A program made the position numbers and the translations under genes. A stretch of 64,000 bases of DNA from Rhizaria sp. SCN 62-66. Lineage: Eukaryota. The notes below the pieces were generated by a model. It made no database searches. It was not told the origin of the DNA and was given only the letters and a program-made list of their open reading frames with translations. The first letter of the stretch is position 1. The number at the start of each line of letters is the position of its first letter. The stretch spans positions 1 to 64,000 of the forward strand of contig MEDY01000320.1 of the NCBI GenBank assembly GCA_001724265.1, in the 5' to 3' direction. Positions 5,212 to 43,471 of this stretch are shown here, one piece after another.

Positions 5212-8137
5212 TCAGTCGTAGATGTTGAAGTGGTCGTTGTTCTGGTGCGAGCGCAGCTTCTCTCCGACGACGCGGTGCACAACGCCCTCCTTGGGCCCCG
5301 ACCGCGCGGACGCGGACCGCGGGTTCTCGCGCGGGCGCGCCGAGCCCTCGCGCTTGCTCGCCGCCGCGGCCGCGGTCTCGCGCGCGTCGCCCGCGCGGTC
5401 CTTCTTGAACAGCGAGCCCAGTCCGACGGGCGCGCCGACGAAGCAGCGCTTGCCGTAGCGGTCGACGTGGCAGTACGGCCCAGGTTCCGTGTGCGCGGGC
5501 GGCTCGCGCAGGTAGAACCGCGCGTCGCCGCCTGCGGGGCCCTCGGCGCGCGCGCGCAGGTGCGGTCCGTGGAGCCCGCCCGCGTGTTGCGTCGTCAGCG
5601 CGGGGGACACGGCGACGACAACGCGGGGCTGCGCCGCGGCCTGCGCGCGCGTGCCCGCCATCGGCGTGTATACGCGCGACGAGACCCAGGGCTCCGCCAC
5701 GCCGCCCGCCGCGCCTGAGTTGTGGCCGTGCCCGTCGTAACCGTGACCGTGCCCGTGGCCGCTGTGGCCACCGCCGTTATAGCCGGTGTCGTAGTCATCG
5801 CCGTAGTCGCCGCCGTCGTTCAGCGGCACGAACACGGACTGTTGCTGCTGCTGTGTATAGCCGTAGCCTGCGTCGCCGAGCCCGCGGTGCGCGTGGACGC
5901 TGCCGCAGCCGCTGTCCCCCGCCCCATTACTATGCGGTGCGGGCGTGATGATACACCGAGCGGGGCCCGGGCCGTAGTCCTCGAATCCTGGCACCGGCGC
6001 CCACAGCGTCTGACTCTGCATCTGGCTCTGCATCTGACTCTGCGCCTGCGCTTGTGCCTGCGCGTATGTGGGTGCTGTGAGCACGATGCCGCGGCTCTGA
6101 TGCTGCTGCTGCTGTGCTGACACGGGCACGGCTAAGAACGCCGGCTCCGGCGCCGCCGCCGCGGGTGGAGGGCCCGCCGCGGCCGAGTGCGAGGGGTACA
6201 TGTGGTTGTGCTGCGCCGCGCGCCGGTGCTGTTGCGCCAGCATCGCGCGCCGCTGCTCCCCGTTCAGCGGCGGCGTCGCGGCGGCAGGGCCGGAAAGGGG
6301 GGAGGGAGCACCGCGGCGCGCGCGGCTGCCGGGCCGCGTGATCGTCACCGGCGGCGACGGCGCGCGCACCGGCACCGCGCGCGGCGGCGTCTGCGCACGC
6401 TGCTGCTGCTGCTGCGGCTGACGGCCACGGTTTTGAGTCGGGGTGACGGCGACGGCGACGCGTTCCGGCCGCGCTCCCGGCCGCGCCAGCGCCATCTGCG
6501 TCTCTCCAGCGGTAGCGGGGCCGACAGTGGGCGCGGGCGAGGGCTGGTGGCGCATCCCAGCTGCAGGCTGCTGCTGGGATCCTGACTGTGCGTTGGCGCG
6601 GGCGGCCATGGCGGAGGCGTTGCGCTGCAGCGGCCGGTTGACGTCCCGCTCCCACCGGTCATCACCCGCGCCGTACGCATTGGAAGCAACGGCGGGACCC
6701 ATCAGCGCGGCCGCGACGCCGCCCTCCGCCGCAGCCCAGGCGCGGTGGGGGTCGGCGCCCGCGGCGGGCGCGGCCCAGCCCCCGACCGTGGGCTGCGCGG
6801 CGCCGACCACTGGGTTCGCCGCCTGCCACGCCTGCGCGTGCAGCAGTGCGGGCGCCGCGTTGCCCGCAGCGTAGCTGCTCGCGTACTGCGGCGTGGCAGC
6901 CCGGCCGTTGTTCGTCCTGTTGCTGTTATTGTTGTGGTGATTGTTAGAGGACGGGTGGCCCCACCAGGGCTCGCTGTCGGCGGTGCCGGCGCCCTCGGTC
7001 TGCGCGCGCGGCGGCACCGGCGCCGGGGCCGCGGCGGCGGCGGCCAGCGCGGCGGCCTCGGCGCCGTCCAGCACCCACCCGGCAGGCGCGGCGTGCGCGC
7101 GCGCGCGGGCGCGGGCCGCGGGGCCGGCGGGCGCGCCGGGGGGCAGCCCGGTCACACCAGCGGCGCCTGATCCGGGACGCGCGGCGCCGAAGACGGCTGC
7201 GGCGGGGACTACGGAGGTGTCTGCGCCAAAGGCCTGCTGCTGCTGGCGGCCGTAGTGCTGCGCGGCGAGCTGCTGCGGCGCCGCCAGCGGCACGGGCGTG
7301 GGGATATACACCAGCGGCGTGTGCGGGGTCGCGGGCCGCTGATGCTGCTACGAGGCTTTGACCTGCGCCACTGCGGGCGGCCGGCCCGCCACGTGCGCGG
7401 CCCACGCAACCGCTTCGTCTGACTGCTGCTGCTGCTGCTTGCTGCGGGCGGCGGAGGCGACGGCGGCGGAGAGGAAGGCCTGCTGGTTGTACTGGTTCTG
7501 CGGCGGCGCGTGGGAGCCTGTGGCAACGGCGGGCGGCGCGGCTGTGGGCGCGTAGGGCGCCGTGTGCGCGTGATTATTGTCGCTGTAGTTGTTGTAGTTG
7601 TTGTAGCTACTGTTATCGGCGATGTAGAAGGGGCGTGACGCGTCGCCCCCGCTGCCGGGTCGCGCGGCGACCGCGATCACGGGCCCCGCAAACGGCACGA
7701 GCTCGGAGCGCGGGATCGCCACTGCGCCGGTGTTGTGGGCCGACGGGGCGGCGTACTGAGGTCCCTGTGGCTGCTGATACTGTTCGCTTTGACCGGGAGC
7801 GGGGGCCCAGACGGGCTGCCAGGCCTCGACCATGGGGTCCAGTGCGGGGGCAGCGGCTCCGGGCGCGGGCTGCCACAAGGATAACGCGGGGAGCACCTTG
7901 TGCAGCTTGACGGGCGGCACAAACGACGGTACAACCGTTTGCGACGGCTGCGGGGAGAGAGAAGGAAAGAACGAGAAGGAAGTGAAGTGAGAAGCGTGAG
8001 GTTACGCGAGTCATAGCGAGGTATGAAAAAGCAACCAAGAGCAGTAAATAGCGCGGGAGTAAAGAACGTACCGTGGCCACGCGCGGGTTAATCCATCCGC
8101 CGTATGCAGGAATGGGTGTCGCGCCTGTTGAGGCCAT
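5212..8137 (-). CDS. Hypothetical Ala/Pro/Gln-rich protein, about 933 aa; exons 8137-8072 and 7947-5212; one internal TAG at 7348-7350
   Basis: ATG at 8137, then a phase-0 intron 8071-7948 (GTACGT...pyrimidine-rich...CAG). ORFs 7348..7920 and 5212..7311 share a frame and are separated only by a TAG (VKAS*QHQRPATPHTPLVYIP). Ends in TGA. Confidence 0.75.
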
Positions 8138-12453: not shown

Positions 12454-14346
12454 TTAAGTGGAGGGCGCAGAAACGATGAGCTTGCCCTTCTGCGAGCGGT
12501 TGGAGAAGTTGTTGTTGCGCGAGCTCATGTAGGGGTAGAAGCCCGCCTTGGTGATCTGCATGAGCACGCCGCCGGCCAGCGACGCGGGCGCGTTGTTCAT
12601 CGCGGCGTTAATCTGCGTCTTGGTGCCGGCCTCGGCGACGGACGAGTAGTAGCCCGAAGTCGCGAGCACGAGCGCGCAGTTGACGTAGTCGGTGTCAGTG
12701 CCAAGGCGCGTGGTGCCGTCGAGCTCCCAGCACTTGGTGTGCTTGAACATGTGGTCCTTGGCGATGTCGAGCGCGATGGGCCAGTTGCCGCCTTGCTCGT
12801 CGGTGAGGACGAAGTTGATGCGGTCCGTGCCGCCCTGGCCCTGGCCGTCGTCGCCAGTCTGGCCGTCGCCACCGGGGGCGCCGTTGTTGTGCGTGTTGGA
12901 GCCAGTCCACTGCATGTGGATGAGGTCGTCAGTGGTGACGCGGAGGTCGTTGCGGACGAAGTCATACTCAACGGAGGGGAACGTCTGGACGATGTTACCA
13001 CGCTTGCCGCGGGTGTTAAAGTTCACAATGCGCTTGCCAGCGAGCGCGGTACCACGCTTCTTAATGAAGAACGTATGGGTGCGGTCCTGGAACGTGCGGC
13101 CGACCTGGGCCGTGTTGAGTGCGAGCTGGAGACCCTGGAGGTCGGCGCCGATGTCCACGGTGGGGTTGTTCTGCACAGGGGACTTAGCGCGGTTCGACTC
13201 GGCGTCGATGTTCCAGCCATCGTAGTCGTCCGAGGTCATGTTATAGCGGATGCGCATCACGCACTTGACCATGTCGTTGTTCGCGCCGTACGTCTTAAAC
13301 TTCTGCGTCGTGACGAGCTGCTCCCAGGTGGGGAGAGTCCAGGTGTAGTTGGCGGGAGTGCCGTCGCGGCCGTCGCCGAGGTGGTTGTCGCGCGACCAGT
13401 CGGCCTGCTTGCAGTCGGGCTTGGGGATGCCGAAGCTGGCGACCTACTCCCATTTGCCCTCGTTGGCCTTGCACGCCTCCTCGTTGTTGTACTTGGCCTT
13501 GGTGGCGTCCGTGATGGGGCCGCAGCGGAACTTGTCCTTGACGTTCTGGGACTCAGTGCCAACGTAGTTGCAGATGTCGATGTTCTGGTCGCCAATGGCC
13601 GTGGTGAGGTAGGCGATGTCGCGCCAGATCGTGGGCGTCCAGTACGGGTAGTAGTCGCGCTCCTCGGGGCACTCGAGGCCGGAGCGGCCGCCGTTGTTGT
13701 TCTGGCGGGTGTAGATTGCAGAGTCGCCGTTCAGGTTGCGGTCCGCGGTGAAGAGGCCCTTGTTGCGCTCGCGAGTCTGGCACAGGTAGTAGTTGTGTTC
13801 GTTCTCGTGGCGGCCGCGCTTGTTGTTGTCGTTGCTGGTCTTGGTGGTGGTGGCGCCAGCGAAGGTGCCCGATGCTTCGGGGGTGCCAGTGTTGCCACCG
13901 TTCTGGAGCGCAACCTCGAGGTCCTTGGTGTCGTCTTTCTGCGTGGCAGTGTCGCAGGTGTACTGCAGCACGACGTTACAGTTGATGTTGTAGGGGTCAG
14001 TGCCGTCGTTACCACCGCACGAGTGCTGGGTGGTCCACTGGTGGAGGAGCTCGGAGCCCTCGTAGTACACCATCGAGTACTGCTGCTTGTCGTTGTTGGC
14101 GCGCGAGAACACGGTCGTGAGGTCGGGTCCGGGGTTGCCGCCATCGAAGGCCTCGTTGGTCTTGTCACCGACGTTGAGGCCACCGCGCGCGTTGTTCTGG
14201 GTGTCCATCAGACGGTTGTTGTTGTCGCGGGTCGCCGTCTGCTCGTTCAAACGGTTGTTAGAACCACCGGTGAGGAGGTAAACATCGGCCAGGGCCGCGG
14301 GAAGCAGCCCAAGCACCAGCGCGAGCACAGCAACGTGAACCCTCAT
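12454..14346 (-). CDS. DD3-3-like secreted protein (630 aa) with one internal TAG at 13444-13446
   Basis: Signal peptide MRVHVAVLALVLGLLPAALA/DVYL; family motifs GSNNRL, ECPEERDYYPYW, RDNH, NTAQVGRTFQDR, RGKRGNIVQ, IQWTGS-like and RNNNFSNRSQKG. Two same-frame ORFs join through one TAG (KWE*VASFGIPKPDC) and are colinear with the neighbouring paralog. Ends in TAA. Confidence 0.88.
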
Positions 14347-15132: not shown

Positions 15133-17640
15133 ATGAAGTTTGTTTCTACCTTTATCGTGCTGTCCCTCTGGGCCTACGCGGCCCTGGCGGACACTTACCT
15201 GGCGAACCCTCGTGGTTCTAACAATCGGTTCGTCCTTCATCGTCCCCCTTGACTCCCCATCTTGCTCCCCCACTCCACGCTCTCTCGCCGGTCGCAACAG
15301 ACTTGCCCCAGAGTCACAATGCGCATATTCTCTCATTCACTTTCTTGTCTTTTCAACCATGCCTTTTTTTCCCGGCGCACACTTAGTCTGAAGGGCCAGA
15401 ACCGCAACCGCAACAACGACAACCGCCTGTTCGACGACCAGAACAACAACCGCGGTGGTTACAACGTCGGCAACATGTACTACTATGAGGGCTCCATCTT
15501 GTCCGTCGAGTGGACTGCGCAGCACAGTTGCGGTAACGCTAACAACAAGTGCGAGTTCGTGTTCCAGTACATGTGCGAGAACCTCGTCCGTGACGGTACC
15601 GAGGAGACAACGATCCCGGCCAACAACGCTAACTGCCTTAACAACGACTGCGACACGGACCCGCGCTACGGCCGCCACGAGTCGTACGGCTACTACGACA
15701 ACTGCATCAAGCGCGAGCGCAACAAGGGCCTGTTCCGCGGCACGCAGAACCTGAACAACCGCAACACCGCGCGCCACACGCGCCAGAACGCGGCCGGCAC
15801 CCGCTACGGCTACGAGTGCCCCGAGGAGCGCGACTACTACCCGTACTGGGGTCCGTCCCCGTGGCGCGACGTCGCCATCTTCACCAACGAGCCCCAGCGC
15901 TGCGCCGCCTACGCCACCGAGTCGCAGAACGTCAAGTCCCGCTGGTACTGCAAGGTGCCCGAGATCTACTGGACGCTCTACCCCAATGCCGGCCAGCGTC
16001 CCATCCCGATCGCCGAGGACACGTGCGCCGCCTTCACCATGGTGAACCCCGAGACGCAGGCCAACGAGACGGCTGTGTGGACCGAAGTGTCCGCGTTTAA
16101 CCTGCCCGCGCCGCAGTGCCGCCAGAACCTCTTCACGCGTGACAACCACCACGGCAACGCGGTCGGCGGCCAGACCTACAACTTTAACTGGACCATCCCG
16201 GCCATCCCGCACGAGCGCTGCGTGTTCCGTCTCCGCTACAACATCACCACCGACGACTTCCCCGGCTTTGAGTCTGCGACGTCGATCCAGAGCTCGTACG
16301 TCAACGCCGACCTCTCTGGCCCCATCGGCGGCGGCGGCGAGGCCAAGGTGCCGATCTGGGAGAAGTTCGGCGTCTCCCAGGCGGAGGCCAAGACGCGCGG
16401 CTACGTGCTGCAGGGCAACCCCGAGGTGGACATGTTCGGCTCGCTGCTTACTGGCGCCGCCGCCGGCAAGGTGAAGCTCCAGCTTAACGTCAACACTGCG
16501 CAGTTCTCCCGCACGTTCGAGGACCGTTCGCACCGCTTCGCGATCCGCGCGCGCGAGGGCAACTACCCCGCCGACGCGACCATCTACAACCTCAACGTGC
16601 GCGGCAAGCGTGGCAACATTGTCCAGACCTATCCGGCCACCGAGTACGACTTCGCGCCCTCGCGCCTTGTCGCGAGCCAGGGCGACTACGTGCACATCCA
16701 GTGGACCGGCTCCAACGCCAACCCGCAGAACAACGACGGCCAGGGCCGCGCCGGCACGGACCGCTCCAACATGGTCGGCCTCGTCCGTCGCAAGTACACT
16801 GAGGCGCCCGAGAACAACCGCATCACGACTGTGGGCACTCTGGGCACCAACATCCCCAAGCGCCTCGGCGTCGACCTCAACTTCCTGGGCTGGTCCAACG
16901 AGACGCTGGTGCAGCTGGCGACTCTGTCGGCGCCCGGCGGCCAGTTCGGCGGCGATATGACCGAGTTTGACGACGCCGGCACGTACTTTGACATGGCGCC
17001 CCGCATGCTGGGCCGCATCGGTGTGTTTAACTACATGTGCACGCGCAACAACAACTTCTCCAATCGCTCGCAGAAGGGCGCCATCATCGTGTCGTTGGAC
17101 CGCATCTCGTCCGAGGTCATCGGCTGGAACGGTGGCGAGATCCAGGGCAAGGGCCGCAACAAGCTCATGGTCCCCGAGGGCGCCTTCCAGTCTGCACAGC
17201 TGCTGTCGCTCACGGTCGTGCCCGCGCACACGCTTGACTCGTCGCGCGGCGAGTCGATTGCCGACCTTTCCTCGGACGTCGTCGTGCTCGCCGGCGCCGT
17301 TGGTGCCAGCAACATGCTCGGCAACATGGTCAAGATCACCATCGGCCACGACGCGTCGCCGCTCGCCGACACCCACATCACCGTCGCCGACACGCTCGCG
17401 GGCCCCTGGACGCGCCTCGCGACCAGTGTGAGCTCCGACACCGCGTCGGCGTGGACGGACCGCGCCGGTGTGTACGCTGTGCAGTCGCCGCTTAAGGTCG
17501 GCGCCATCATCGGCATTGTCATCGGCGGGCTGATCCTCATCGCCGCGGGCGTCTTCCTCATCATCTACTGCAAGAAGAAGGCCGACGCCGCCGCCACGGC
17601 CGCCTACTCTGACTCCCTCAACGGCCCTCAGAACGCGTAA
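15133..17640 (+). CDS. DD3-3-like type I membrane protein (about 782 aa); exons 15133-15227 and 15387-17640
   Basis: Signal peptide MKFVSTFIVLSLWAYAALA/DTYLANPRGSNNR; phase-2 intron 15228-15386 (GTTCGT...TTAG) restores SNNRL; same DD3-3 motifs as the paralog; C-terminal hydrophobic helix VGAIIGIVIGGLILIAAGVFLIIYC followed by KKK; ends in TAA. Confidence 0.9.
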
Positions 17641-27265: not shown

Positions 27266-30200
27266 TTACCACCGTGACGTTACGAAACCCTGCCGAGCGC
27301 CGTCGATGCCAGCCTTCTTCTGCTGCTGTTGCTGCTTGCTCAGCTGCTCCTGGTGTTGCTGCTGTTGCGCCGCGCCCGGCCTGACAACCGGTGGGAGTGC
27401 GAGCGGGACGGCGTAGCGCGGCAGCGCGCTGGCAAGCGACTGTACGACCGGCGCCGCTGGCAGATTAGGAGCCAGCGCGGGCAGCGACACACCCTGAAGC
27501 TGCTGATGATGCTGCAACGGGTGTTTGCTGTCGGAAACATAGGCCGTGACGGGCAGGAAGCGCCGCTGCGCCGCGGTGGCAATGAGCTGCGGCGTCGCGC
27601 GGACGCGCCGCACAAGAGGCTCCTCCGGACCGATGGCAGCTGCTGCGGCTGCAGGCGCAGCGGATGACTCGGCCATCTCTGGCACGGCGTCGCATTGCTG
27701 CTGTTCCTGCTGCTGCTGTTGGAGAAGCTCGTCGCGCTGGCGTTGCTGCGCAGTGATAAAGGCAAAATACGGATCCACCGAGCTCACCGTGGGCAGCGCC
27801 GAGCGCGCGCTCTGCGGGGCCGCAACCGCCACAGCCGCTGCGGCCGTCGCCGGGCCAAGCGTGGGCCCCGCGGTGTGGACCGCCTTGAGCGGTGCCGCAG
27901 TCACCGCAGCTACTGCCCCGGCAGCGGCGGCCTGTGCGCGCAGGTCGATGAAGCGCTCGAGTGAGGCCAAGTCGTCGTACAGAGCAGGATCTGCCCAGTC
28001 GACGCCTGCAGGGTCCACCAGGACATCACCGCGCGCCGGAGCACCTTCAGTGGTAGCGTTACCGTCGGTGCTGCCGTCGCTGTCGGCGGCTGTGAGCTTG
28101 TGGCGGAGGTGCGCGGCGGCGACGTCCTGGAGCACGTTGGCCACAGCAGCGTTGCGGGCCAGCTCGCCCAGCATCGCGCCCTTGTCCGCCCAGTGACCGC
28201 GCGAGCTCCTAACTACCGCGGCCGCACTGGGCACAGCGGTGGCGCCAAGGAGGCTAAAACCGTCGCGCGCCGTGAGCATCTCCGCAACGCCGCCCGCGCC
28301 CGGCGGCAGCACGGCGTCGAGGTGGTCGAACTCGTCGCCGCGCATCGACTCAGACAGCGCGACAGGCGGCGCGTCGCGGAGCTGACGCATGCGCGCCGCG
28401 GCGGCATCGGCGGCCTCGCGCCGGCTGTGTAGTCGGCGCAGAGCCTCGCGCGCGGCCACTGACGGCTGCTGTGAGAGCCGCGACAATGACGTCGCGACGG
28501 TTGCACTGCCACTGACAGCGCCGCTGTCTCCGGCTGTCTCAGCGCCTGAGAACTCGCCCCAGTCGTCCGCGCCGTCGCCCCAGCCGCCGCCGCCGCCGCC
28601 GGCCTCCATGCCTGCGGTGCCCGCGCGGCCCGCGCGCGAGCGGCCGCGGCTGCGGAGGCGCTCTATTTCGCCGCGCGCGGTGCCCGTAGTCGCCACCGCA
28701 TTGGCCACGGAGTTGGACGCGTACATAACGACGCCGTCGGCCGCGCCGTCGCCGTAGCACGAGCCCGCGGCGGCGCAGCCGCCGCTCGCGGGCCCACGCA
28801 GCACAGCGAGCTCAGCCTCGACAGCGCGCACCTCGCGCTCGTACACGCCGACAAGTCCTTCCAGATCGAGCAAGTGCGCGCGGTAGAGACGCCGTACGAG
28901 TGGGGGCAGCCCAGCGTCGCCGCTTGTGCCGCCGCGCAGCCCCGCTGCGTGGGCCGCGGGAAGCAGCCCGCCCATGCCGCGCGCCGCGAGGGCGGCTGAG
29001 AGCATCGCAGACACGTGGGCGGCGTCGGCCTCGTCCGAGCCCGCGGGCAGCAAGCCCAGCGCGGACAGCGCGTCCTCGCCGCCGGGAACCGCGCGGGAGT
29101 TGGCGACGGCGTTCAGCAGCACAGCGCGGCCGCGCGGGCCCGCGCGCTGCAGCGCAGCGGCGTACTAGTTCGCGAGTGTGGCGTCTGCACGCAGCGCGCG
29201 CAGCGGCACGCGCGCCCATACGCCCGACGCGCCGTGGAAGAAGGCCGGGCGCGCGCCCATCATGCCGCCCTCGGCGCCGCCGCGGCGCGCGCGCGCAGAG
29301 GCTGCGGCGGCCTCGGCTGCTGCCACAGAGCGGGGCACAGCTACGCGGTAGTTGCGGCCTTCGGACGTATACTCAGGCCCACGGTTCAGCGGTAGCATGA
29401 ACAACGGCAGCCCGTCGGGACCCAGCCGCAGCGGCCTCGGGCGGCGACGGTTTCGGTTTGAGTCGGAGTTTGAGTCGCCACTCTCCGTCTCCCAGTCATC
29501 GTCGTCGTCCTCGGTGTCGTGGCGGTGACGGCGCCGGCGCTTGGGCTAGCCAGGCGAGCGCGGGCGCGCGTCGACCACGTGCGACGGCACCTTTGCGCGC
29601 ACGCGGCTGTAGTCAGTGCTGTTTACGTTCATGCTGCGCGCGCGTCGTGAGCGGCGACTAGAGCCATCGCCGCCGTCTTCTTCGCCGTTATCGTCACCGT
29701 CGGCGTCACTGTCCGAGTCGTCCGCCGAGCTTTCGCGAGCATGGCGGTTGCGGCGGCGACGCTTTCTCCGGTTGCTCGCCAGCGGCTTGTTAGGGTCGGG
29801 CCGCAGTCCGGCGGCGATCTCGATTTCCCTGCAGCGGCGCTCGAGCTCGCGCTCCTCGTCCTTGCGTTTGCGCTGAGCGGCACGCGCGCGGCGGTCCTCC
29901 GCGTCGTGGTTACGCTGACGGCGCTCGATCACGCGCTGCTCCATCTCCTTGCGCACATGCTCAAGCCTGCGCTTTAACGAAGCCTCCTTGAGCTGCGCTT
30001 GCGCACGCTTGGTATCCTCGTCCGCGAGCGCGGCCTCTTGCGCAGCCTCGCGGCGCTGACGGTAGGCGTCGAGCACGCGCTCACGCTCTTCACGTCGCGC
30101 GCGCTCCGTGTCGCCCCAGCCGCTGCCGCCGCCGCTGCTGTGCAGCCCGCCGCGCGAGTCGAGCCGCGTGCCGCCGGGCGAGCGCAGCGCGTCTCTGCCG

Positions 30201-33200
30201 TCGCCGCGCTTGCCGCCGCGGGAGCCAGACGGATGCTCGTCGTCATCGTCGTCTTCCGAGTCGGTGAGCGCGCGCCCGTCGGGGCCAACGCGGCGACGGT
30301 GACGACGACGGCGGCGGCGGCGGCGGCCGGGAGGTCCGCCCAGCAACGGCATCCAGATCTGCGTCTTGCGCACAGTTACAGTGCCATCAGTGTTGACGCG
30401 CACATCGTCGGGGCCTGCGACCCACTCGCCCTCCTCCGCCGCGCCCGTCGCGGAGGCGCCGGGGTCCGAGGCGGGGTCCTCCTCCCACTCCCAGTCCTCG
30501 TCGTCATCCTCGCTCGCCGGCCCGCGCCCGCGACGCATCTGCAGCCGCTCGGGTGACGCGTACGAAGACATCTCATCTTCGTCGTCGTCAGCGTGCGGGC
30601 CGAGGCGGCGGCGCAGACGGCGGCGGCGCAACTCCTGCCCGGCCGCGACGGCGTTGTGCGCGAGCGCACCCGCGCCGTCCTCGTAGATGGAACTGCTGTC
30701 GGATAGGTAGTCGCTATCGTCTTCCTCGTCCTCGCTGCTGCCGGGTGCAAAACCGTCGAGTGGGTTCACAGGCCGCACGCGCCGCCGCTGCGTCGCCTCG
30801 TCCAGCGCGCGGCGCCGCGACGCGCGCGCAAGGCGGTCCAGGGCCGCAGGACTGGCCTGGATCTCGCCGCGACCAGAGCCCGCGCCTGCGCTCGCGCCGG
30901 CTTGACCGGCATGCTTGAGCGCGCGCAGGGCTAGCGCGGCCATGCCCGCGCCGCGGCGGCGCGCAAATGTGGCGGCGATCTCGCGCGCGTCGGGCAGAAT
31001 GGCGCCAACGATAAGCTCGTCGAGCTGCTGTAGCGCGGTGGGCGTTGCCAGTGCGCCGGCGAACGCCGCGGGGCCGTGGCCTGCCGCGGGCGCCGAGTTG
31101 AACACGCTCACGGCCGGCGCGCGCAGGGAAAAGACCGGCACGGGCGCTGGGTGGCGCGCGAATGACGGCGCTGCGCAAGTGACAGTGAGCGTAACCGCGA
31201 GCGCAGGGTCCGACACGGCGAGCGCGGCGGCGTTGCTCGCGGTTCCCGGCGCGGCGTTAGGCTGAGCACGGAAAAACGACGCCAACTTGCCACCCGCAGC
31301 GGGCGCCGCAACTGTGGCTACGTCACCGGATGCCGCCGGGGCCGCGGCAGAGGCGGCACGCGAGCGCGCGTCGTCCTCGGCGATTGCGGCGGCGCCCGCA
31401 GCGAGCGCCGCCGGCGTGGCTAGGTCGTAAGGGTCCGCGGTGCCCAGCGCCAACGCGCGGTCAAGCGGCAGCGCCGCCACGCCGCGCTCCCGGCCGCCTA
31501 GCGTGATGCCGGCGCCGCGCCCGCGGGTAGCTGGCTACTGCGAGGCGGCGGGCGCGAGACCCAGCAGCACGGTAGCGGCGGCGGCGGCCACGGCGGCAAG
31601 CGCGCCCTCCGCGGCCGCGGCAGCCAAGTCGAGCGGGGTTTCCTTGAGCGCATAGCGCAGCATCTCGCGGCGGCGCAGAACGTCGCGCACGGCCACGGGC
31701 CCGCGCGCGGGCACCCACCACACGGGCGCACACGCGGTCAGGGGGAGCTCGCCCGCAGCGGGCGCGACGGACGGCGCGGTGGCGTTGGCTGTACTCATCA
31801 GCGCGCGGCGGGGAGAGCCCGCGAGCGCGGCCGAGTGCTGCAGCTGCTGGTGCTGCGGCTGCTGGTGCGCCAGCATCTGCTGCGTTTGCGGCTGCCCCGC
31901 GGCCGCCATCGCTGCGCGTGCGAGTACGAGCGTGGGGTGCGGCAAGTGCAGCGGACCGCGCGCGCGCCACCGCGGCACCAGCGGCGCCAGCGTCAACAGC
32001 AGACGTGCGGGCAGCGCAGCGGCGAAGGCGACGGACGCGGGTGTGCCGATCAGCGCCGCGTTGACCGCCGACGCCGCGGAGGCTGCAGCGGCAGCTGGAG
32101 TGATCAGCTCCATCGCGGCGCCGGGCTTGCCGCGGGGCGGAATGCCGCAGCGGCGCACGGTGGCTGCGCTCATCGCGGCGGCCGCGGCGGCATCTGCAAT
32201 GCGGCGCGCCTCCTCGGCGGCCGCGGCTGCCGTGCGCGAAGCAGCAGCCGCAGCCGAAGCCACGGCGGTCTCCGCGGCGTCGGCGGACAGTGAAGGCAGC
32301 GGCGGCACGTAAAAGACCTTGACGACGGGCGGTGTGGCGGGCAGCGCAGCCAGGGACAGATGCGCGCGCAACAGCGGCAAAAGCGTGTCGCGCGCGGGCG
32401 CGTGCACGGCCGACTGCAGCAGCGCCCACGGAAGAGTGTGCAGCGGCTGCACGGTCGAAACAGCCGGCGCAGCGGGCTCAAAAGGCTGCCCGGCTGCAGC
32501 GGCGCCGGAACTGGCGTTGGATGACGATGACGCAGCAGGCGCGCCGGACTGAGGCTCTGTCGGCGGCAGCACAAAGCTGTGGTAGTGCGCGTACAGGCGT
32601 GCAAGTGGCAGCGGCAGCGGGGGCACGGGGGCCGGTGTAGCGACGTCTGCGGAGCCGCCAGCTGCTGCGGCCGCCGCGCTTGCAGCAACAGAAGCGGCGG
32701 CAGAGGCGGCAGAAGCCTGCAGAGAGGCGAGCTGCGACAGAAACCACTGCACCGCAGGCGCGCCGGCCACGACAGCGGGGTCGTTGCGCGTGAGCGTGAC
32801 TGTGAGCCCACTACGTGGGAACAACAGCGTCGGCTGCGGCTGCGCAAGCGGCGCGAACACGGAGCCCGTGGGCCGCAGCAGCCCCGCGAGCGCGGAGTTG
32901 CGCACGCTCGCAGCGCTGCCGGGCTGCACAGCCGCGAACTGGGCTGTCAATGCAGCGGCAGCAGCGGGGGCCGAGGACTTGGCAGCGGGGCCGCGAGCGG
33001 TGGATTTGGCTCCGCCGCGCGAAGTGGCAGCCTCGGCCGCAGCGGCAACCTCAGCAGCAGGCGCGGCGTCTGAGGCTGCACCAGCAGGCTTCTCCTTGAG
33101 CAGCTGCGTTTGCAGACTCTCCGTCGCCTCGACGGCAGCAGCCAGCGCAGCGGCCAGCTGTGCGTCGCCGCCCGCAGTGCCGTCTTCAGCACCCGCAGCA

Positions 33201-36200
33201 CCAACAGCAGACACGGCGCCGCGCAAGCGGCCCGCGAGCACGAGGTCGAGCACGTCATCCGCGGCCAGACTGCCACGCATGATGTTGAGCGACACGGTGA
33301 CGCGATCTAGTGCCACTGTGAAGGCCGCGCGCGCCTTGGCCCCCGCGGGCGTCTCGGCGCCGCGGTAACGCGCGCGCCAAACACGGTGGAACAGGTTGCT
33401 CTGCGCGGGCGTCAACGCGCGCGCACCGTCGGGGCCGGACGGTTCAGCGGTGCCTGCAGCGGGACGCGGACTCGAGCCGATGGCGTCGTCGCCGCTGTGC
33501 TCACCCTTGTTGGCCGCGGTGGCGGCAACAGCGGCAGCGCGCAGGAGCCCAGCAGCGGCGGCGAGCGATGCGGTACGCTGAAAGGCGGCCAGAGGCCGGA
33601 ACGGCAGATCCGTCGACAACGCAGTGGGCGCGTCGAAGGCAGTGCCACGCGAGATCAGTGCGGCAACAGAGCTAGCCGTGGGCGCGTCGCCGCCGAGACA
33701 TGACGCGGAGCTCGAGAGCGAAGACCGGCCGGGCGAGCCGGGCGACGCGGGACCCATGCCAGGCTCTGACACAGAGATGTTGTTGAGCACCGCGATTTGT
33801 GCGACAGCGGCGACGACGGAAGAAGGCGCGGGGTCTGCGGCCGAGAGCCCGCCGGCAGCGCCAGACAAACTCATCGACGCTGCCAACAACGCGGGTGCAT
33901 CCTCAGTGTCAGCAAAGTCGCCCAGTGCGGCGGCCGCGGCTGCTGCAGCCGCGGAGGCGTGCTGCGTGGGCGGCGGCGGCACACCGCGCGCAGCAGCGTC
34001 GTAAGCCTCGGCCTTGGCCAGCAGAGCGCGCGCCCGGTGCAAGAGCGCGAGCGCGGCGTGAGGCGTGCCAGCAGAGCCCGCGCTCGCGCCGTGGCCGTGC
34101 CGAGAAGACGAAATGGTCGTCACGGGTTCGGGCGCATCGTCTTCGTCGTCGTCCTGCTGGCGCGGCACGCCGTCCTGCGCCGCCCCATCGCCGGCCGCGT
34201 TCGCGGCGGCACCGCCAGCGGGCGCGGCGGGTTGCTGGAACTCGACAAGAAGCGTGCCGCCGGACTCAAAGGCGTGCTTCGCAAACAGTACCCACACGGA
34301 CTCCTCGAGATCTAGCTCGATTGGCCGCGGTAGCGCGACGGAGAGGTCGTACTCAACCGTCGTGACGCCGCCCTTGCCGGCCTTGGTGGACGCAGACGGA
34401 CCGGACCCAAACAGCGCACGCTCGTCCTCGTCGTCAGAGTTCTACGCCGTCGCCGTGGCCTCGAGCTCGGGATGCGGCTCCACAGCAACGGCCATGGACG
34501 CAGTCTCTGACTCGGGCATGGCATAGGCGCTGGAGCCCGAGCCTGCAGCCGCCGCAGCGGCCGCGGCGCCAGGGCCCGAGACAGCAGCCTTGCGCGCGGT
34601 CGCCGTGCGCGCGAGCGCTCCCGCGGGCGGGGCGCGCGCGGCGGCGATGCGCGTGGGCGGGACGTGGTAATGGTCACGTTGCACGGGCTCCACAAGCACG
34701 TCGAGCCACAGTGTCACCGACTGGCCGGGCGCGGCGCGGCGGGCCGAGGACCGCTGCAGCCACGCGGTGAGGAAGCCGGGCGACGCCAGCAGTGGCGCCA
34801 GCGCGCGCGGCGGCGGCGACGGCGGCAGCGCGGCCGCGGGCGGGTGCAGCAGCGACGCCAGGTAAAGCTGGTACTGCGTCAACTGCCCAGCCCAGGCCGC
34901 GGTCGCCGCGACCGTCGCTGCGGCGGCAGCGGCCGCGGGCGAGGCCGCGACGCCCGCGGGGCCCAGCGGGGGCGCGAGCACGCCGGGCACAGGTGGCGCC
35001 AGCGCGGCGAGCGAGCACGACAGCAGCGCGCTGTGGCGGCGAGTGGCGGCCGCGGCGGCGACGGCCGCGGCAGTCGCGGCCGAGGACCGCGCGGCAGACG
35101 CGTAGCCCAGGTAGTGCGTCTCCGCCGCCAGCAGCACTGTGCCGTGGTGGTAGGGGAAGCCCGAGGCATAAACCGCGCTCAGCGCCGCCGCGGCGCCCGT
35201 CGCAGCCGCGGCGGCGCCGGGCAGCCGGCGGTGGCGGCCCGCGGCGTCCGGGGAGACGAGCTCCGCGGGGCGGCTCTGCGGCCGCGTGGGCGAAACGGCG
35301 CCGCTGCGAGACTGGCCAACGGCGGTCCCGGGCGCGGTGCCGGGCGGCGACAGGGGCCCGCCGGCCGTGGGGGTGAACGCGGGCGTGTTCGAGCGAGACG
35401 GCAGGCTTGCGCCCGTCGCCGCGGCGCCGGGGAGTTCGAGCGTGGCGCCCGCGGGCGGCGGCGAAATGGGCCGCGCGGCCTCGACCGCGAGCGTGGCGCG
35501 CGGGGCGGCGCGCGGGAGGTACGGTGGCGCGGAAAGGTGCGAGATCGGCAGCGACACGCAGGGTGCCGAGGCGGGCACGGGCTGATACGGTGGCGGCGGC
35601 GCGCCGTAGTGGCCCGCGGGCGCGAGCGGCAGCGGCGACTGCAGCATGTACAGCCCGTTGAGCGCCGACAAGAACGCAAACGCGAGGTGCCGCGCGTGCG
35701 CGCGCGAGGTCTGCGCGGGGATGAGCTCGGAGAAGCGCGGCAGCGGCCACGCGGCGAGGTCGACCGCCACTGGCGCGGGTGTGCCGTGGGGGCCGTCACG
35801 CGGACGCGGGCCGCGAGGGCCTCCGTGGCCACCACCGGGAGCAGCCGCGGCCGCAGCGGCGGCGGCGGCGGCGACGGCGGCCTGGCCGGCAGCGGAGCCG
35901 CGGCGCACGCCGGCGCCGCGGCCGCCCGCACCGGGGGCGCCAGCGGCGGCAGCAGCGGCGCGTGCAGTGACCGCGGCTGTGGTGAAGGCGGCCACGGCAT
36001 TGCGGAGGTAGTGCACCTGCTCTTGCCTGCGTGCGTTCGAGTCCGCGGCAGCGGCGCGCTCGCTGACGCGCACGGCCGCGGCGATGCGCGACACGAGGGC
36101 AGAGTCTGCGCGAATGAACTCAGCCGTCGACGCAGCAGCTGCGGCAGCAGCAGCGGCCTCTGAGCCCGACAGAGCGGCCGAGGCCGGCGGCGATGCCAGA

Positions 36201-39200
36201 ACGGCCGCAGTCGGTGGCAGCACGAGCGCCGGTGAGTGAGCGATCGCCCACGTCGCAGCGCCGAGCTCAGACACGGCCACGGCGGGCGCGGAGAACAGCG
36301 CGACCGCGAGGTCGGCCTCCGCGGGCGTGGGCGTCAGGACGCGGTACAGCTCGCGGAAGCGCGGGCGCAGCAGCGAGGGCTCGGCAACGGCCGCGATGAG
36401 CTCGTAGGCGCGCAGCGTCGTGGCCTCAAGCAGCATCTTCTCCGTCGCAGCCGCACGCAGTGCCAGCGCCAGAGCGTCGCACTCGCGCGTGAGCTGTTCG
36501 TGCGCCGTCGTCAGCGCGGCGCGCGCAGAGTCGGTCTGCGAGCGCTCCTGCGAGAGCCGCAGCCGCGCCTCGGCCACGTCCTGCTGCAGCGACGCGGCGA
36601 GCGCGCGTTCGCGGGCGATGGCGTGCGCGATGTGCGCGCGGTGGCGCGCGGCCGACGCCGCCGTGCCGCTCTGCGCGTCGCGGATCAAGTCCTCGACCTC
36701 GGCGCAGTCCGAGTCAAGCCGTGCGCGCTTGTTGCGGAGCTGCGCGAGCTCGCGCAAGAGACGGGCCTCCTCGCCGACTGCGCGCACCTGCAGCACGGCG
36801 AGCGAGCGCCGCTGGCGCCGGTCCACTGCCGCGAGCCGGCGCTGCACGCTGGCCGCGCGCTCGAGCCGCGCGTTAAGCGCGCGCCTGGCGGGCTCAGCCA
36901 GCCTCGCCCACGCCGCGAGCGACGCCGCCTCGCCGCGCGCGCGGGCCAACGCGTGCGCCGCGAGGGCGTCCGCCAGCGGCTGTGTGACGGACGCGGCGGC
37001 CGCGGGCGTCGCCGAGTTGTGGTCCAGCAGCACGCGCTTCAGAGCATAAACAAACCGCGCGTAGCGGGGGTACGGGTTCAGCGGTGCAGCGCGGCGCGCG
37101 GCGTCGGCGGGCGACATCATGTCCGACGCAGTGTCAGCTTTCACGAGCGTTGTCACATGCACAGGCAAGGGCGCAGGCGCTGGCGCGGGCGTCGGAGCCG
37201 CTCCGGGCATCGGCGAAGGCGCTGTGGAGCCGGGCAGCGCGGTCTGCTGCTGTTGTTTTTGTTGCTCTTTGAGCTTCGCGGCGTGCTCGGCCTCTGCGGC
37301 GGCGGAGGCAGCTGCAGCGGCGGCAGATGCGGTGGCAAAAGGGTCGGCGGGGCATGGCAGCACGGGCAGCAGCCAGCGGTTGCGGAGCTGCAGCCGTGAG
37401 GCCCACTGGTGCATGGTGCACTTGGTGATGAAGTTATCGCGCAAGTCCACGTCCTGCAGCGACGTGGGCAGCGTCAACAGCGGCGTCAGCGCGCCCGCGC
37501 CGCCGTCCGTCACGCACGCGCCGCGCAGAGACAGACTTAGCAGGCCCTGCTTCACAACGTGGCCGGCGCCGCCACCCCAGGCCGCGGAGGCCGCGCCGGT
37601 CGTGGCGGTCGCGGCGGCGTTGGCAGCGAGTGCCTGGACCAGCGCCAGCGCGCCGGCGGCCTCGCTTTCCTGCTCGCCCACCGCGAGCGCTGCGGCGGCC
37701 GCGGCGGCAGCCACGGCAGCAGCCGCGACGGGCTGCCCCGCGTTGGCACCCGCGACCGCGGAGCCAGCCGTTGCCACCGCTGTGGCGGGCGCGGCGGCGG
37801 TCAGGACGGCTGCCTGGCCACCGAGCGCCTCGCCGCCCGCGAGCGCGTCCGAGTGCGCTGCATTGTGGTACAGCCCGAAGATCGTGGGCTGCTGCGCACG
37901 CGCCGCGGCGAGCACGGCGGCGGCCGTCTTATTGCCCAGCGCCGCGGACAGCGCCGCTTGCTGCCGCAGCGCGTGTGCACGCGGACTCAGGTCGACGTTC
38001 TCGCCCGCGGCGGCCTCGGCCGCGGCGGACGCGGCGGCGGCAGCGGCAGCGGCAGCGGCGCTGGGTGCGCTTGTGGACGGTCCGTTGGGCGCGGCGCCTG
38101 CGGCGACGGCGATGGCGCGCGCGCGAGCCGCGGGCGAGACCCAGTTGGGCGGAAGGAACTCGGCGACACCGGGCAGCAGCGAGCGCCGCGAGGCGGATGG
38201 GGACAACGCGGCGGCCACGGCGGCAGCGGCGGCGGTGGCGACAGCGGCGTTCTTCACGGCCGCAGCGGCGGAACCAGGCGGCAGTAGACGCGACTCTGAC
38301 GCGGCGGGCGCGACCGTGACCGCGGGCAAACCGGGCAGCGAGGCGAGGCGCCGGTGCGCACCGCCGCCGCCGCCACCGCTGCCGCCGGTCGTGGATCCGC
38401 CGACTTGGCCCAGCGGCCCTGCAGCGACGACAGCGGCGACGGCGGCGGCGAACGCGTTAGCCTCCTCGCGGCCCGGCGCGGCGCCGGCGCCCTCGTCATC
38501 GTCCGCGTGGCCAGCCGCGGGGGTGGCGACAGCACCGGATCCGTCATCGGCCGCGGCCTCAGTCGGCGGCACCCACACGGGCTGCGCCGGGGGCGCTGGT
38601 AGCGCCTTAACCTGCCCGTTCATGGCCTTCTGCGGCGACGGACCCAGTCCGAACGACGGCGCGGCGCCGCTGCCGCCCCCGCGCGCGGCGATGGCGGCGG
38701 CGCCCGGCGAGGCGAAGCCCAAGGAGATGCCTTCGTAGACCATGAGCGCATCGTGGTTCGCAGTCTCGTCCTCAGGTAGACCCGCGGCGTTGGCGTCGAC
38801 AGGGGCCGAGGAAGACGCGCGGTTGATTCCCGGCGCAGCACTAGCGCCAGACTGACCCGAAGAGGCGGCGGCGACGGCGGCGGCGGTGCCTTGTTTGAGC
38901 TTGAGTTGGGCCTCAAGCTGCGCGCGCGCGGCCTCCTCCTCGGCGGCCGCGGCGGCTGCAGCGCGGCGCTCGGCCTCAGCGGCGACCTCGGCGGCCAGAG
39001 TAAGCAGACCGCCACGGGAGCGCGCGGCGCGCGAGCGGGCCAGTGCCTGCGTGCTCTTGGTGTCACCGCGGGCGCGCGCGCGGGCCAGCGCGGCGGCGTC
39101 TGCGTGCGCCTCAACGGCCGCGACGACCGGGTTCGACACACCGTGCTGCAGCACGTAGCCGATTAGCGACGCGCCCAGGTCGCCGACAGGGTTGTCGGAC

Positions 39201-42200
39201 AGGTCCAGGTGCGCCAGCAGCGGCGAGTGCAGCAGACAGAGGCAGAAGCGCATGAAGCAGTCGCGTCCGAGAGTGCCGTAGCCCCAACCAAACGCCGCCG
39301 CCGCAGTCGTCTGAGTCAGCTGCGTCTGCGCCGCGGCGGCGGCAGCCGAGGCCTGTGCGGCCGCGCTCGGGTCGACGTTCCCGCCGTGTGCCTGTGCGTG
39401 TGCTTGCGCAGCGGCAGCAGCAGCGGCGGCGGCCGCGGCGCCGGGCAATCCCGCGGCAACGCGGCGCGCGGTCGCGGGCAGCGAGGCGGCGGCGGCCTCC
39501 ACGGCGTCCGCGGGCAGCAGCGCCGCAAAGGGGCCAGAAGACATCGCAGTCGCGGCGGCGCCGGAGGTCAGCAGCGCGCGCGCCTCGGCCTCGCTCAGCG
39601 CGGCGGCCATCGCGGCAGCGTTCACGGCGGCGGCCGAAGACGTCGCGTCGCCGTCCCCGCCCCGGCCGTCGCCGCCAGCACCCGCCGCCGCGGCCGACGC
39701 GCTAGCGGTGGAGGACGGCGGCGCGCGGCCGGCGCGGCGCGCGCGGCCCAGCAGCGCGTTGACGGCCGCAGACGTGCCCGCAACCGTGCCGGGCACGCCC
39801 GCCATGACCGCGCCGCCCTGGACGAAGCTCGCGCCCGACGGCGCCGCGGTCCCGCCCGCGCCCACCGCACCCTGCCCCGCGCCCGAGCCGCCGGCACCGG
39901 GCTGCGCGGCGCGCGCGAGGAGCTGCGAGCCGCCGGCATTGGACTCAGCCGCAAGGCGCTGGTAGCGGCGCTCGGCGGCCGTCACGCCTGTCGGAGCCTG
40001 CAGAGACGCGCTGGGCCCGCCGGCTGCGGCCGAGGCGGCGGCTGCCGCGGACAGCGCAGTGGCCGACGCGCGCAGAGCGGCAGCGTGCGCAGCAGCGCCG
40101 TTGCCCGTGTCGGCGGTGTCGGCGCCCGCGGCGGCGGCGGCGGCGGGTAGCGCAGTCTGCGGCGTGATGAGCATGCCCAGCTGGCGCGAGGGCGCGATGC
40201 CGCAGCGCGCGAGTGAGAGCCGCTCCAGCCGAGTGTACGGCAGCGCGGACGACAGGTGGTACAGGCCGAAGGGCCCGATGGCGTTGCCGGCGAGCGACAG
40301 CGCCGAGAGCGCCGAGGACGACGACGTGAGCGCGGCGGCGAGCTGCGGGAACAGCGAAGTGGGACCACAGCCCACGGTCTGCGGGGTAAGCTCGCAGCGC
40401 GATATGTCGAGCGTGAGCAGCGCCGAGTTGAGAGCCACCATCGCGCACAGCGCGTCGACCGTAGACTGCGTGCGGAACGCGTTGCCGGCGATCGACAGCA
40501 CGCGCACACGCGGCAGCCGGCCGGAAGGGTTCCACGCGCTCTTGACGGGCGTCAGCGAGCGAAACAGCGTCTGCAGCTGCGGCTCCGACAGCCGGTTATC
40601 GCTGAGGTCCAGGTGCGTGAGCGCAGACCGCGGTGCGAGCCACGGCGCGCGGCGCAGCAAGTGTGTGAATCCGGCGTTGCCAACGCCCGCGAGGCCGATA
40701 CGCTCGAGCAGCGTGTTGTGCGCGAGCGCGCGCGCCAGGGCTTGCGCGCCGGCAAGCCCCATGGTGTTGTGCTGGCGGTCCAGACACGTAGAGCCCAGGT
40801 CGAGCGCGACCACGGACGCGCTCAGGTACACCGACACGCGCGTCCACTGAAGCGGCGCCACGGACGCGGGCAGAGGCGCCGCCAGCGCGGAGCTTGCGCC
40901 AGTCGTCGCAACGCCAGCGGCCGCGGGCACCGTGTTGTTGTCGGCGGCCGCAGTCGCGGTCGCAGTCGAGGTCGCAAGCGCGGTGGCGGCAGCGGCGGCA
41001 GCAGCAGCAGCGGTGGCCGCAGTGGCTCCCGCAAGTGCGTAGCCGACGACGGGCTTCTTCTCAGCGCCGCCGCCGTTGCCCACGCCGTCGGGCCCGCCAT
41101 AGCGCTGCGCAAGCACCTGCGCCTGCACCGACGCGCGCGCCAAATCGAGCGGGACAGGCACGCGGCGCTTGGCCACGCGGGTCAGCGCGCGCGCGACGGC
41201 CGTGACGCCCGCGGGCGAGAGCGAATTGCACTGGAGGTTGAGCGCGACAAAGGGCGGGCCGAACGAGTGCGGCAGCGGGTGCGTGCGCGGCGTCGCAAGC
41301 ACGGGCAGCACGCGTCCGTCGGCAGACCGCGAGCCTGCGATGGCGAAGCACTTGCCGACCAGCGCGCCCGCCAGCGCCGCTGCACCAGCGTCGCCCAGCG
41401 CGTTGGCCGAAAGGTCGAGCGAGACGAACCGCGCGGGCTGCCACGACGCCGCCACAGCGCGCGCCATTGCCGCGGCCGCGGCGGCCTCGGACCCGGCGGC
41501 CGCGCTGGCCGCCGCGGTCGGGTCCGCGGCCGCGCGCGCGGCGAGCGCGAGGTCGAGGCTGCGGCGCTGCGGCAGCGGTTGATTCCGCACCGACTGAGAC
41601 AGGACGAGTTGCGCCACAAGCGGCACCCACTCGGGAGTGAGCGCAAGATCCTGCAGCGACACTTCGCGCACCAGAGAACCGCCCGCGACGTCGCCACTGG
41701 AGGCGCTGCCCGAGAAGGAGAACCCAGGTGTGTCGCCCGCGTCGCCGGGCGCAGTGACGCTAGTGCCGCGGCGGCGCTGCTGCTGGCCCTGCTGCTGCGC
41801 CAGCTTCTTCTGCAGCACGTACTGGTTCGCCACCGACACGGCAGACGGCGCGGGGCCGTCGCCGTGACCCGCCGCAGCCGCCGCGACGGCGTCGGCGGCC
41901 AGCGCGGCGCGGTGACGGAGCCGGAAGGCCGTGGCGAAGCGCGACCAGCGCAGCAGCACGTCCGCCGACACGCCCTGCGCGGCGGCCGCGGCGGCCACAG
42001 CGGCGGCGGTCGCGCCCGCGCCGCCCGCGGGCAGCTGGCCGCGCTTGCGCGCCTGCGCGACGAGCCGGTCGTGCCCGTCGGTCGCCGCGTCCGGCAGCAG
42101 AGGAAACGCCTCCGCGGCGGGGCGTACGGTCTGGCTCGCGGCCGCGCGCGCGGAGGACGCCGCGGAAGCCACAGCGGCCGTCAGAGTCGACTGCAGGAAC

Positions 42201-43471
42201 GAGTCGAGCGCGCCGGCCCACTCCAGGCGCTGTGCCGCGCCAGAGTCCGGCGCCGCGCTAGTCGAGCTCACGGTCTCAGTCTCGGCAGCGGCCGCACTGG
42301 CGCCCGAGGGCGGCGCTGGGCCATGCTGACGCTTGCGCGCAGCAGCAGCAGCGGTGGCGGTGCCGGGCGCGGCCATGGAGGACGGGACGGTGTCATCGAC
42401 AAGACAGAGGTGCAGCAGCATCGTGTCTCCATCGCAGTCATCGTCAGACTCGCTGTCGCTGCAGCCGCGCAGCTCCATGTCGTCTAGACTGCCGCCATCG
42501 TCCTCGCCGGCGCCGCTGCCGTCGCCGCCGTCCGCGCCACCGCCGCCGCCGCCGGGGCCCGCGCGGGAGACCGACCGCGACGCGGCGCGCGATGCAGCAC
42601 GCGACGCAGCACGCGAGTTAGAGTGCGAGCTGTGATGGGAATTGTGGTGAGAGTTTTGGTGCGAGGTTTGGTGTGAGGTTTGCTGCGAAGATGCGAGCGA
42701 GCGGTGACCGCCCGCGCGGAAGCCTGTCGCGCCCAGGAAGGAACCGCGGGGTGACGCGCGGGGCGAGGCGCGCGGGGTAGCGCGCGAAGGGCCGCGGGAA
42801 GGGAAAAAGTCGGGGTTGGAGCCGGCGCCGGGGAAGCCGGGGGGCGGGAACGAGCCCGGGAGCACAACTGAGGGCCCGTGGACGGGCAGCAACGGGGTGC
42901 TGCTGTGCGAGGAGCCCGGGAAAGCAGAGGCTGACGCCGAGGACGCTGAAGAGTTGGGGGACTCGATGACAAACTCAAAGTGTCCGTGGGCCATCGCCAG
43001 TTCCTCCGCCTCTTCGTCGGCCTCCAGCACCAGCGCACGCGGGTGCGGCGACGCGTTGGCGTGGCGCAGAAACGCGGCAGCCTGATTGTCGGCCTCCGCA
43101 GCGGCCTCGGTGAACACGGCCTCAACGTCGGTCGCCGCGGGCATGTTACGGGCGGCGGCCACGTCCTCTTCAAGCTCGAGACGCCGCATCGCGAGACGGG
43201 ACGTCAGCGTGCGTCGCCCGTCGTCCAGCGCGGCCTCGTCGTGCGCGTGTTGCAGTACCGCGCGTGCGGCGTGTGCGAAGGCCACGGCAGCCGTCGGCGA
43301 CGCCGCGCGCATGCGGGCCTCTTCGGCAGCCATTTCAGCTGCCAACTCCTCCTCGCTGCGCTGGTTGCCATACAGCTGTCGCCGCAGGGAGTCAGGGGAA
43401 CCCGCGTCCGCGGCAGGCCGCAACTTGGGTGCGTGGACGGCCCCGTGGGCCGACCCGCCGAAGGGGAACAT
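27266..43471 (-). CDS. Giant intronless RI-type leucine-rich-repeat and coiled-coil protein (5401 aa) with four internal TAG codons
   Basis: Five track ORFs (34442.., 31535.., 29546.., 29165.., 27266..) share one frame. I translated the gaps between them and each contains only a single TAG. LRR units include LDLSANALGDAGA, LNLQCNSL, LDLSDNRL, LSLAGNAIG, LDLSDNPVGDLGA and VDLRDNFIT. ATG at 43471, ends in TAA. Confidence 0.8.

Follow-up and report, generated by a model that had tools for sequence, protein, structure and literature searches.

We propose that the organism whose genome is considered here probably uses a nuclear code in which UAG, a rare codon, specifies glutamate while UAA and UGA remain stops, and that a DD3-3-like gene with an in-frame TAG is an instance of this code and not a broken gene. 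In the proposed mechanism, UAG would have been purged from gene ends and would then have reappeared within genes as a rare Glu codon, a single tRNA-Glu-like tRNA(CUA) would read it as Glu, an altered eRF1 would fail at UAG, and the DD3-3-like gene would yield a full 630-aa protein with Glu301.

A DD3-3-like gene continues through an in-frame TAG

The window (the whole 64,000-nucleotide stretch of DNA that was analysed) contains a minus-strand frame of 678 codons, from 14490 to 12454, whose sole interruption is a TAG at 13446–13444. Within it, the DD3-3-like gene (12454–14346, minus strand), delimited from its open reading frame, its homologues and a full-length structural model, runs for 630 codons with no evident intron, from an ATG at 14346 to a terminal TAA at 12456–12454. 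Its product reads ...KWE-X301-VASFGIPKPDCKQADWSRDNHLG... and starts with a probable signal peptide, picked out by eye without a predictor as 20 hydrophobic residues before ADVY (14287–14346, minus strand). The TAG described in the original prediction is real, and falls at codon 301 of 630. P0003, the closest of the 120 homologues listed, has 77% identity across 612 columns, aligns without a gap at the site, and has Glu opposite the TAG; identity to P0003 is 213/281 before the TAG and 256/327 after it. The motifs downstream of the TAG are intact in translation and codon bias is retained past it (GC3 of 0.889 before and 0.903 after), both as had been claimed. That the two halves are equally conserved and have the same GC3 argues against a broken or truncated gene and, with the genome-wide pattern of TAGs described below, supports the earlier claim that this TAG specifies an amino acid.

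The gene has a plus-strand paralogue beside it (15133–17640), which ends in TAA and contains a GT-AG intron (15228–15386, plus strand) that appears as a 159-base joint in the X5 contig described below. The overall identity of the two proteins is only 34% (222/660); the gap-free alignment with Glu opposite the TAG was nevertheless borne out locally, the aligned codon being a GAA at 16084–16086 (plus strand). The two starts (14346 and 15133) lie head to head at a distance of about 790 bases, and a C-terminal hydrophobic segment is present in the plus-strand paralogue and absent from the other. Two further minus-strand frames in the window contain in-frame TAGs: a 5,409-codon frame with an LRR_6 match, four TAGs (34444, 31537, 29548 and 29167) and a terminal TAA (27266–43495), and one of 929 codons that is interrupted by a single TAG, at 7350, and closes with TGA (5212–8001).

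We modelled the DD3-3-like protein from a 121-sequence alignment (12457–14286, minus strand). The model predicts one confident fold (pLDDT 88.9, pTM 0.92), with the TAG residue in a strand at positions 278–282 of the mature chain. By contrast, pTM is 0.45 in the Atlas model for the truncated half. The predicted structures indicate that the two halves of the protein belong together, and are silent on which residue is used. Searches with the model gave no fold match at E ≤ 0.001 or Z ≥ 8. Below that level, residues 418–610 have a weak likeness to cupredoxins (best Z 6.8, rmsd 2.4, 93 residues aligned) and residues 1–411 a weak likeness to the LPMO-type fold (Z 5.0, rmsd 4.0, 142 aligned); with all Z scores under 8 and the domains folded jointly, these putative likenesses are a lead only. 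The source label "plastocyanin" is attached to two top-matching homologues and to one lower in the match list. The family is large and secreted, with 2,266 matches among 8,000 candidates; the protein itself had no Pfam match and no PDB sequence match. The family name was given in the original prediction, and no protein named DD3-3 is present among the 120 homologues listed. DD3-3-like proteins are described, in the passages cited, as glycoproteins of Dictyostelium and invertebrates, such as Dictyostelium DD3-3 and ascidian HrSMLP1 (PMC6916515), and the likeness of the present protein to these is by that family label only.

We also compared contig assemblies from four runs at the TAG. The X5 contig crosses the TAG without a gap and reaches 20 bases beyond it, where bridging was defined as at least 31 bases past the TAG; X3 has no cover at the site and X4 has a diverged, gapped contig. 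Taken together, the contigs neither confirm nor contradict the TAG. Five runs from four studies, comprising bioreactor and wastewater metagenomes and one unlabelled run, hold at least half of the window's words, and one of them is possibly the source of the window. A metagenome scan for DD3-3-like loci of relatives found one distant locus, with 30% identity. In public protein collections the gene is divided at the TAG into two fragments (13447–14346 and 12457–13272); both halves are on record as separate proteins, each on three contigs that may derive from the same material. Other genes are similarly split at TAG in public protein sets, and eight of ten fragments looked up were on record.

Coding sequence continues past TAG and ends at TAA or TGA

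We determined stop-codon usage in a sample of ~0.93 Mb that consisted of the window and fetched loci, overlaps included, and represented <3% of the 34.9-Mb eukaryote genome, in which the window is contig C320. A dicodon coding model was trained on this sample and used to classify stops that follow long coding stretches; its training frames allowed TAG read-through, which makes the test mildly circular. Coding continued past 15 of 16 TAGs, as compared with 9 of 104 TAA or TGA codons (Fisher p = 4e-12), and past 20 of 29 TAGs at a looser model setting. The 96 model-based gene ends comprise 59 TAA, 36 TGA and a single TAG; beyond this lone TAG "end", which is doubtful as a terminus, the frame runs on for 11 codons to a TGA. 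TAA terminated coding in 59 of 65 cases, with one doubtful internal TAA, and known C-termini (seven motif matches in six genes, two of the matches being ubiquitin copies) all ended in TAA. The presence of TAG inside genes with coding continuing beyond it, together with its near-absence from gene ends, suggests that UAG is sense and that UAA and UGA are stops. On the question of a dual code, in which UAG would be sense inside genes and a stop near their 3′ ends, this sample has the one doubtful terminal TAG among 96 ends.

The coding model placed 22 in-frame UAGs inside intact genes, followed by varied bases (C in nine, T in six, G in four and A in three) and far from the next stop. Separately, inspection of 31 TAG-bearing matches to protein families gave 12 exonic sites; the other 19 matches were dropped by eye as splice acceptors or intronic. 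No usable exonic TAG was found in the dynein heavy chain, kinesin, DEAD, ABC, HECT, myosin, AMP-binding, WD40 or AAA families. In total, UAG was counted 22–57 times in 175,598 codons, the upper figure including intronic noise, as compared with 6,964 GAG and 1,007 GAA codons, and hence makes up about 0.3–0.7% of Glu codons; for the whole genome we estimate 1,000–2,500 UAG sites. Open frames of 9,600 to 14,166 codons surround HECT and WD40 matches on four contigs (G000:C81, C42, C111 and C34).

A single tRNA(CUA) gene resembles tRNA-Glu

A pattern search followed by ARAGORN identified a tRNA gene with a CTA anticodon (G000:C84:76008–76080, minus strand). The gene scores 58 bits on Rfam RF00005, is single-copy, and is followed by a T run; its contig has host-like GC content and encodes a kinase and a kinesin as well. 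Of the tRNA types with which it was compared, the organism's own Glu(CTC) was the top-scoring match, with 64% identity, followed by Glu(TTC) with 54%, Asp with 51%, and two Gln tRNAs with 44% and 38%. The TCCCA...TGGGA acceptor stem is common to tRNA(CUA) and both Glu tRNAs, and the 5′ acceptor strand matches Glu at five of seven positions and Gln at one of seven. The variable loop is short and ARAGORN draws a standard cloverleaf, while the free fold is weak (z −1.53). Under the proposed code, this tRNA would be expressed and charged with Glu. In the ARAGORN drawing (L038:1489–1561, minus strand), CCC follows the D-loop GG and an A-G mismatch tops the anticodon stem; either feature may tune the reading of UAG.

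The pattern search was at background overall (61 matches as compared with 117 in the control), and became informative after ARAGORN had been applied to 30 fetched loci. The resulting tRNA set is incomplete, with 63 of 506 candidates scored and tRNAs for Phe, Pro and Val absent from it. We identified no tRNA(UUA) among 11 TTA-pattern matches, of which one was fetched and proved to be tRNA-Lys(TTT) and ten were judged by eye, a procedure that an intron-bearing gene would escape. Decoding of UAG as pyrrolysine was rejected: the ARAGORN label "Pyl" follows the anticodon, the cloverleaf is standard, and the genome, which may be incomplete, has no match to TIGR02367 for PylRS.

Conserved sites point to glutamate at UAG

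The original prediction held that Glu is the likeliest residue and that codon 301 of the DD3-3-like gene is the best site at which to identify it; the former stood, and the latter did not. Across the 120 homologues listed, the column aligned with the TAG is variable (G 24, A 18, S 13, gap 11, K 9, E 7, L 7, R 5, P 5, T 5, C 5, Q 4 and 7 others) and does not fix the residue, Glu being present in only seven. The closest homologue and the 34%-identical paralogue both have Glu in this column. The residue is instead named by an eRF1 site, a kinase hinge, FAP21 and tRNA(CUA), all of which lie outside the window.

At the eRF1 TAG, which corresponds to human position 107, the 117 homologues have Glu in 106, Asp in 10, Val in one and Gln in none. 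At a TAG in the hinge of a TKL kinase (VT-X-LC), 33 of the organism's own kinases include 24 with Glu, four with Asp and none with Gln; the Pfam score is 47.7 bits for Glu and 45.2 for Gln, and Glu is the best of 16 residues, while in KSR proteins, the closest relatives with a solved structure, this position is Ser. A TAG in FAP21/EFHB (NYGN-X-P) is opposite Glu in all five alignments listed, with eight chains matched. Other sites are less uniform: a UBC6-like site has Asp in 91, Glu in 17 and Gln in one of 150 sequences, a site in SUV3 has Asp in two and Ser in one of the three alignments listed, and a CaMK site has Ala or Lys in the five alignments listed.

We summed Pfam scores over ten sites, namely nine sites and the TKL-kinase hinge; three exonic sites (L137, L198 and L199) are outside the sum, as are L220 and two UCH matches with mixed stops. 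The totals were 546.1 bits for Glu, 541.9 for Gln, 540.7 for Lys, 540.4 for Asp, 536.0 for Ser, 527.3 for Tyr, 525.2 for Leu and 524.7 for Trp. By these profile scores, the pooled sum excludes Leu, Tyr and Trp; Glu is best or tied-best at only five of the ten sites, and its margin over Gln is only ~4 bits.

Substitutions in an eRF1 that itself contains a TAG

The only eRF1 gene found (L062:1117–1830 on G000:C63, minus strand) has its in-frame TAG in domain 1, which recognises stop codons. Relative to 117 homologues, the protein has the substitutions T32S and G57S, at positions where Thr and Gly, respectively, are present in 117/117, and T58K (1/117), as well as M34V, L124M and K130Q. It retains E55, NIKS, S70 and YxCxxxF, and L69 is intact. 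In Iotanema spirale, T32G has been linked to a lost contact with the G of UAG (Pánek et al., PMC5304391). However, in the simulations cited, the contact to the third-position G is credited only to the Thr32 backbone (PMC5681627), so T32S may do little; its effect on UAG recognition is uncertain and may be small.

Two proteins appear to come from a close relative, P0126 (84% identical) and P0003 (77%). The P0126 eRF1 keeps GTS, yet has T58K and M34V in common with the present eRF1, a state that may mark a step before the reassignment. The chance of at least one TAG in a 440-codon gene is 5–13%, and the TAG in eRF1 is therefore suggestive only. One scenario, speculative and in our estimate unlikely, is an early reassignment locked by feedback, with UAG rare, one tRNA-Glu remodelled, and any eRF1 that regained UAG recognition truncating itself.

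Alternative explanations

E. coli amber suppressors are frequently mischarged with Gln, and GlnRS might similarly charge the CUA tRNA through its anticodon, such that UAG would be sense and would specify Gln, or a mixture of Glu and Gln. We regard this as decidedly unlikely. In line with it, a TAG in a divergent ubiquitin copy (L128) is opposite Gln in the ubiquitins of this organism, polyQ tracts contain several of the TAGs, and the Pfam margin is small. A test of flanking residues at the 22 sites also failed to separate the two, giving a difference of −0.2 bits (Glu minus Gln) with Lys highest; the controls had a mean of +26 and a minimum of 0.2 for Glu and a mean of −31.5 and a maximum of 12.5 for Gln, and the test value falls between both sets. 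These Gln-like contexts would be expected under either code, however, if they reflect CAG-to-TAG transitions tolerated in unconstrained sequence, and Gln is absent from the eRF1 column (0/117), the kinase hinge (0/33) and the FAP21 alignments listed (0/5), while the acceptor strand of the tRNA favours Glu. Slightly less likely still is an ambiguous intermediate, with a Glu suppressor competing against an eRF1 that still partly terminates at UAG to give both full-length and truncated products. The great rarity of UAG, the one divergent copy of tRNA(CUA), the conservative nature of T32S and the motifs retained by eRF1 are all compatible with such competition; against it stand the single UAG among 96 gene ends, the UAG inside the only eRF1 gene found, and the varied 3′ bases, distant next stops and lack of a readthrough context at UAGs.

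Explanations confined to the DD3-3-like gene fare worse. That its TAG is a nonsense mutation, a heterozygous null allele or an assembly error in one redundant paralogue is very improbable, even though the paralogue is adjacent and no independent record with TAG at the exact site was shown by the contigs compared, since conservation and GC3 are equal on either side of the TAG, eRF1 and other genes are interrupted alike and by TAG only, a cognate tRNA exists, and on other contigs a kinase fragment that differs by one residue (P0527) ends at the same point. There is next to no chance that splicing, or editing to UGG or CAG, takes the TAG out of the mRNA. Splice acceptors in this genome are often TAG, and 19 of 31 inspected matches lay at intron ends or within introns; however, the P0003 alignment is ungapped on both sides of the TAG, the X5 contig crosses it ungapped, though by only 20 bases, Trp is worst in the Pfam sum, and Gln is absent at conserved columns. 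We therefore retain the reading of UAG as Glu, with Glu as the residue that would be present in the protein.

Discussion

Comparison with known codes. In the passages cited, Oligohymenophorea sp. PL0344 reads UAG as Glu and UAA as Lys, stops only at UGA, and has ten tRNA(CUA) genes (PMC10553269). The present organism is like PL0344 in that UAG would specify Glu and tRNA(CUA) is nearest to tRNA-Glu, but the PL0344 tRNA(CUA)s are closer to tRNA-Glu (69–93%) than is the tRNA here (64% to Glu(CTC)). Moreover, UAA is the main stop here, one tRNA(CUA) was found, the genome is GC-rich, and the organism does not cluster with a ciliate of confident placement. As in Rhizarian sp. exLh (UAG = Leu) and I. 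spirale (UAG = Gln), UAG alone would be reassigned and UAA and UGA kept (PMC5304391). The eRF1 of I. spirale is altered at the same position as here (T32G and T32S, respectively), whereas exLh, which is probably from the same supergroup as the present organism, has L69A where L69 is intact here (PMC5304391). In I. spirale, UAG accounts for ~8% of Gln codons (PMC5304391), far above its share of Glu codons here. Reported UAG-only reassignments give Leu, Gln or Ser, with Leu or Gln in phyllopharyngeans and Ser in Scotinosphaera (PMC11687900). UAA is still the preferred stop in these, as it is here, but the amino acids differ and UAG is present in 78–91% of their genes (PMC11687900). In peritrichs and Blastocrithidia nonstop, a Glu-accepting tRNA reads UAG, as proposed here, but UAA and UAG are both sense (PMC11687900, PMC12153298).

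Each of these codes was considered for the present genome and set aside. For the UAG = Leu code of exLh and phyllopharyngeans, the Pfam sum for Leu is ~21 bits below that for Glu, and tRNA(CUA) has no long variable arm. For the UAG = Gln code of Iotanema, Hartmannula and Trochilia, Gln is absent from the three best-conserved columns and tRNA(CUA) is only 38–44% identical to Gln tRNAs; with the ubiquitin copy and the flanking-residue test, it keeps a small probability. The UAR = Glu codes of peritrichs and Blastocrithidia and the PL0344 code require UAA to be sense, whereas coding terminates at 59 of 65 UAAs. In the literature covered, from which most subscription journals and supplements were outside scope, we found no code with UAG as Glu and both UAA and UGA as stops; the code may be new, and a prior report may exist.

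Identity of the organism. The sequences suggest that the organism is likely a divergent cercozoan protist. Among 120 HSP90 matches listed, no relative exceeds ~71% identity; named matches are Mataza, Leptophrys and Lapot, alongside entries labelled Euplotes and Ploeotia, and in a tree HSP90 is on a long branch (0.62) within an unresolved group that includes Mataza. Ubiquitin is encoded by single-unit genes that start MS-MQIFVK, with one additional Ser ahead of the canonical start, and end GG-HPQ; several copies carry deletions or are divergent. No polyubiquitin was present in eight loci fetched (L126–L133, on G000:C3, C651, C681 and others), although the assembly may have collapsed. An insertion of one or two residues at polyubiquitin junctions is described as a rhizarian marker (PMC12930898, PMC13746701), and the start of the monomers here, the only form seen, recalls it. 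Several dynein heavy chains suggest a flagellate stage. The only SSU rRNA gene found (L001:1501–5945 on G000:C706) is AT-rich and divergent, spans ~4.4 kb and has four matches to group I introns; it is a candidate only for the SSU rRNA gene of this GC-rich organism.

Implications. Nuclear codes seldom treat UAG differently from UAA, and the cases found involve Leu, Gln or Ser, or Glu with UAA also reassigned. The code of exLh was described as the first non-canonical nuclear code in Rhizaria (PMC5304391); if the lineage assigned here is right, the present code would be a second independent change in that group. The tRNA and eRF1 genes are both available and the genome is GC-rich, which leaves no place for explanations by AT pressure, so that codon-capture and ambiguous-intermediate models become testable. 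The eRF1 described here is a natural candidate for a release factor specific to UAA and UGA. UAG is so rare in this genome that its reassignment is easily overlooked, and similar codes may hide in other metagenome-derived eukaryote genomes.
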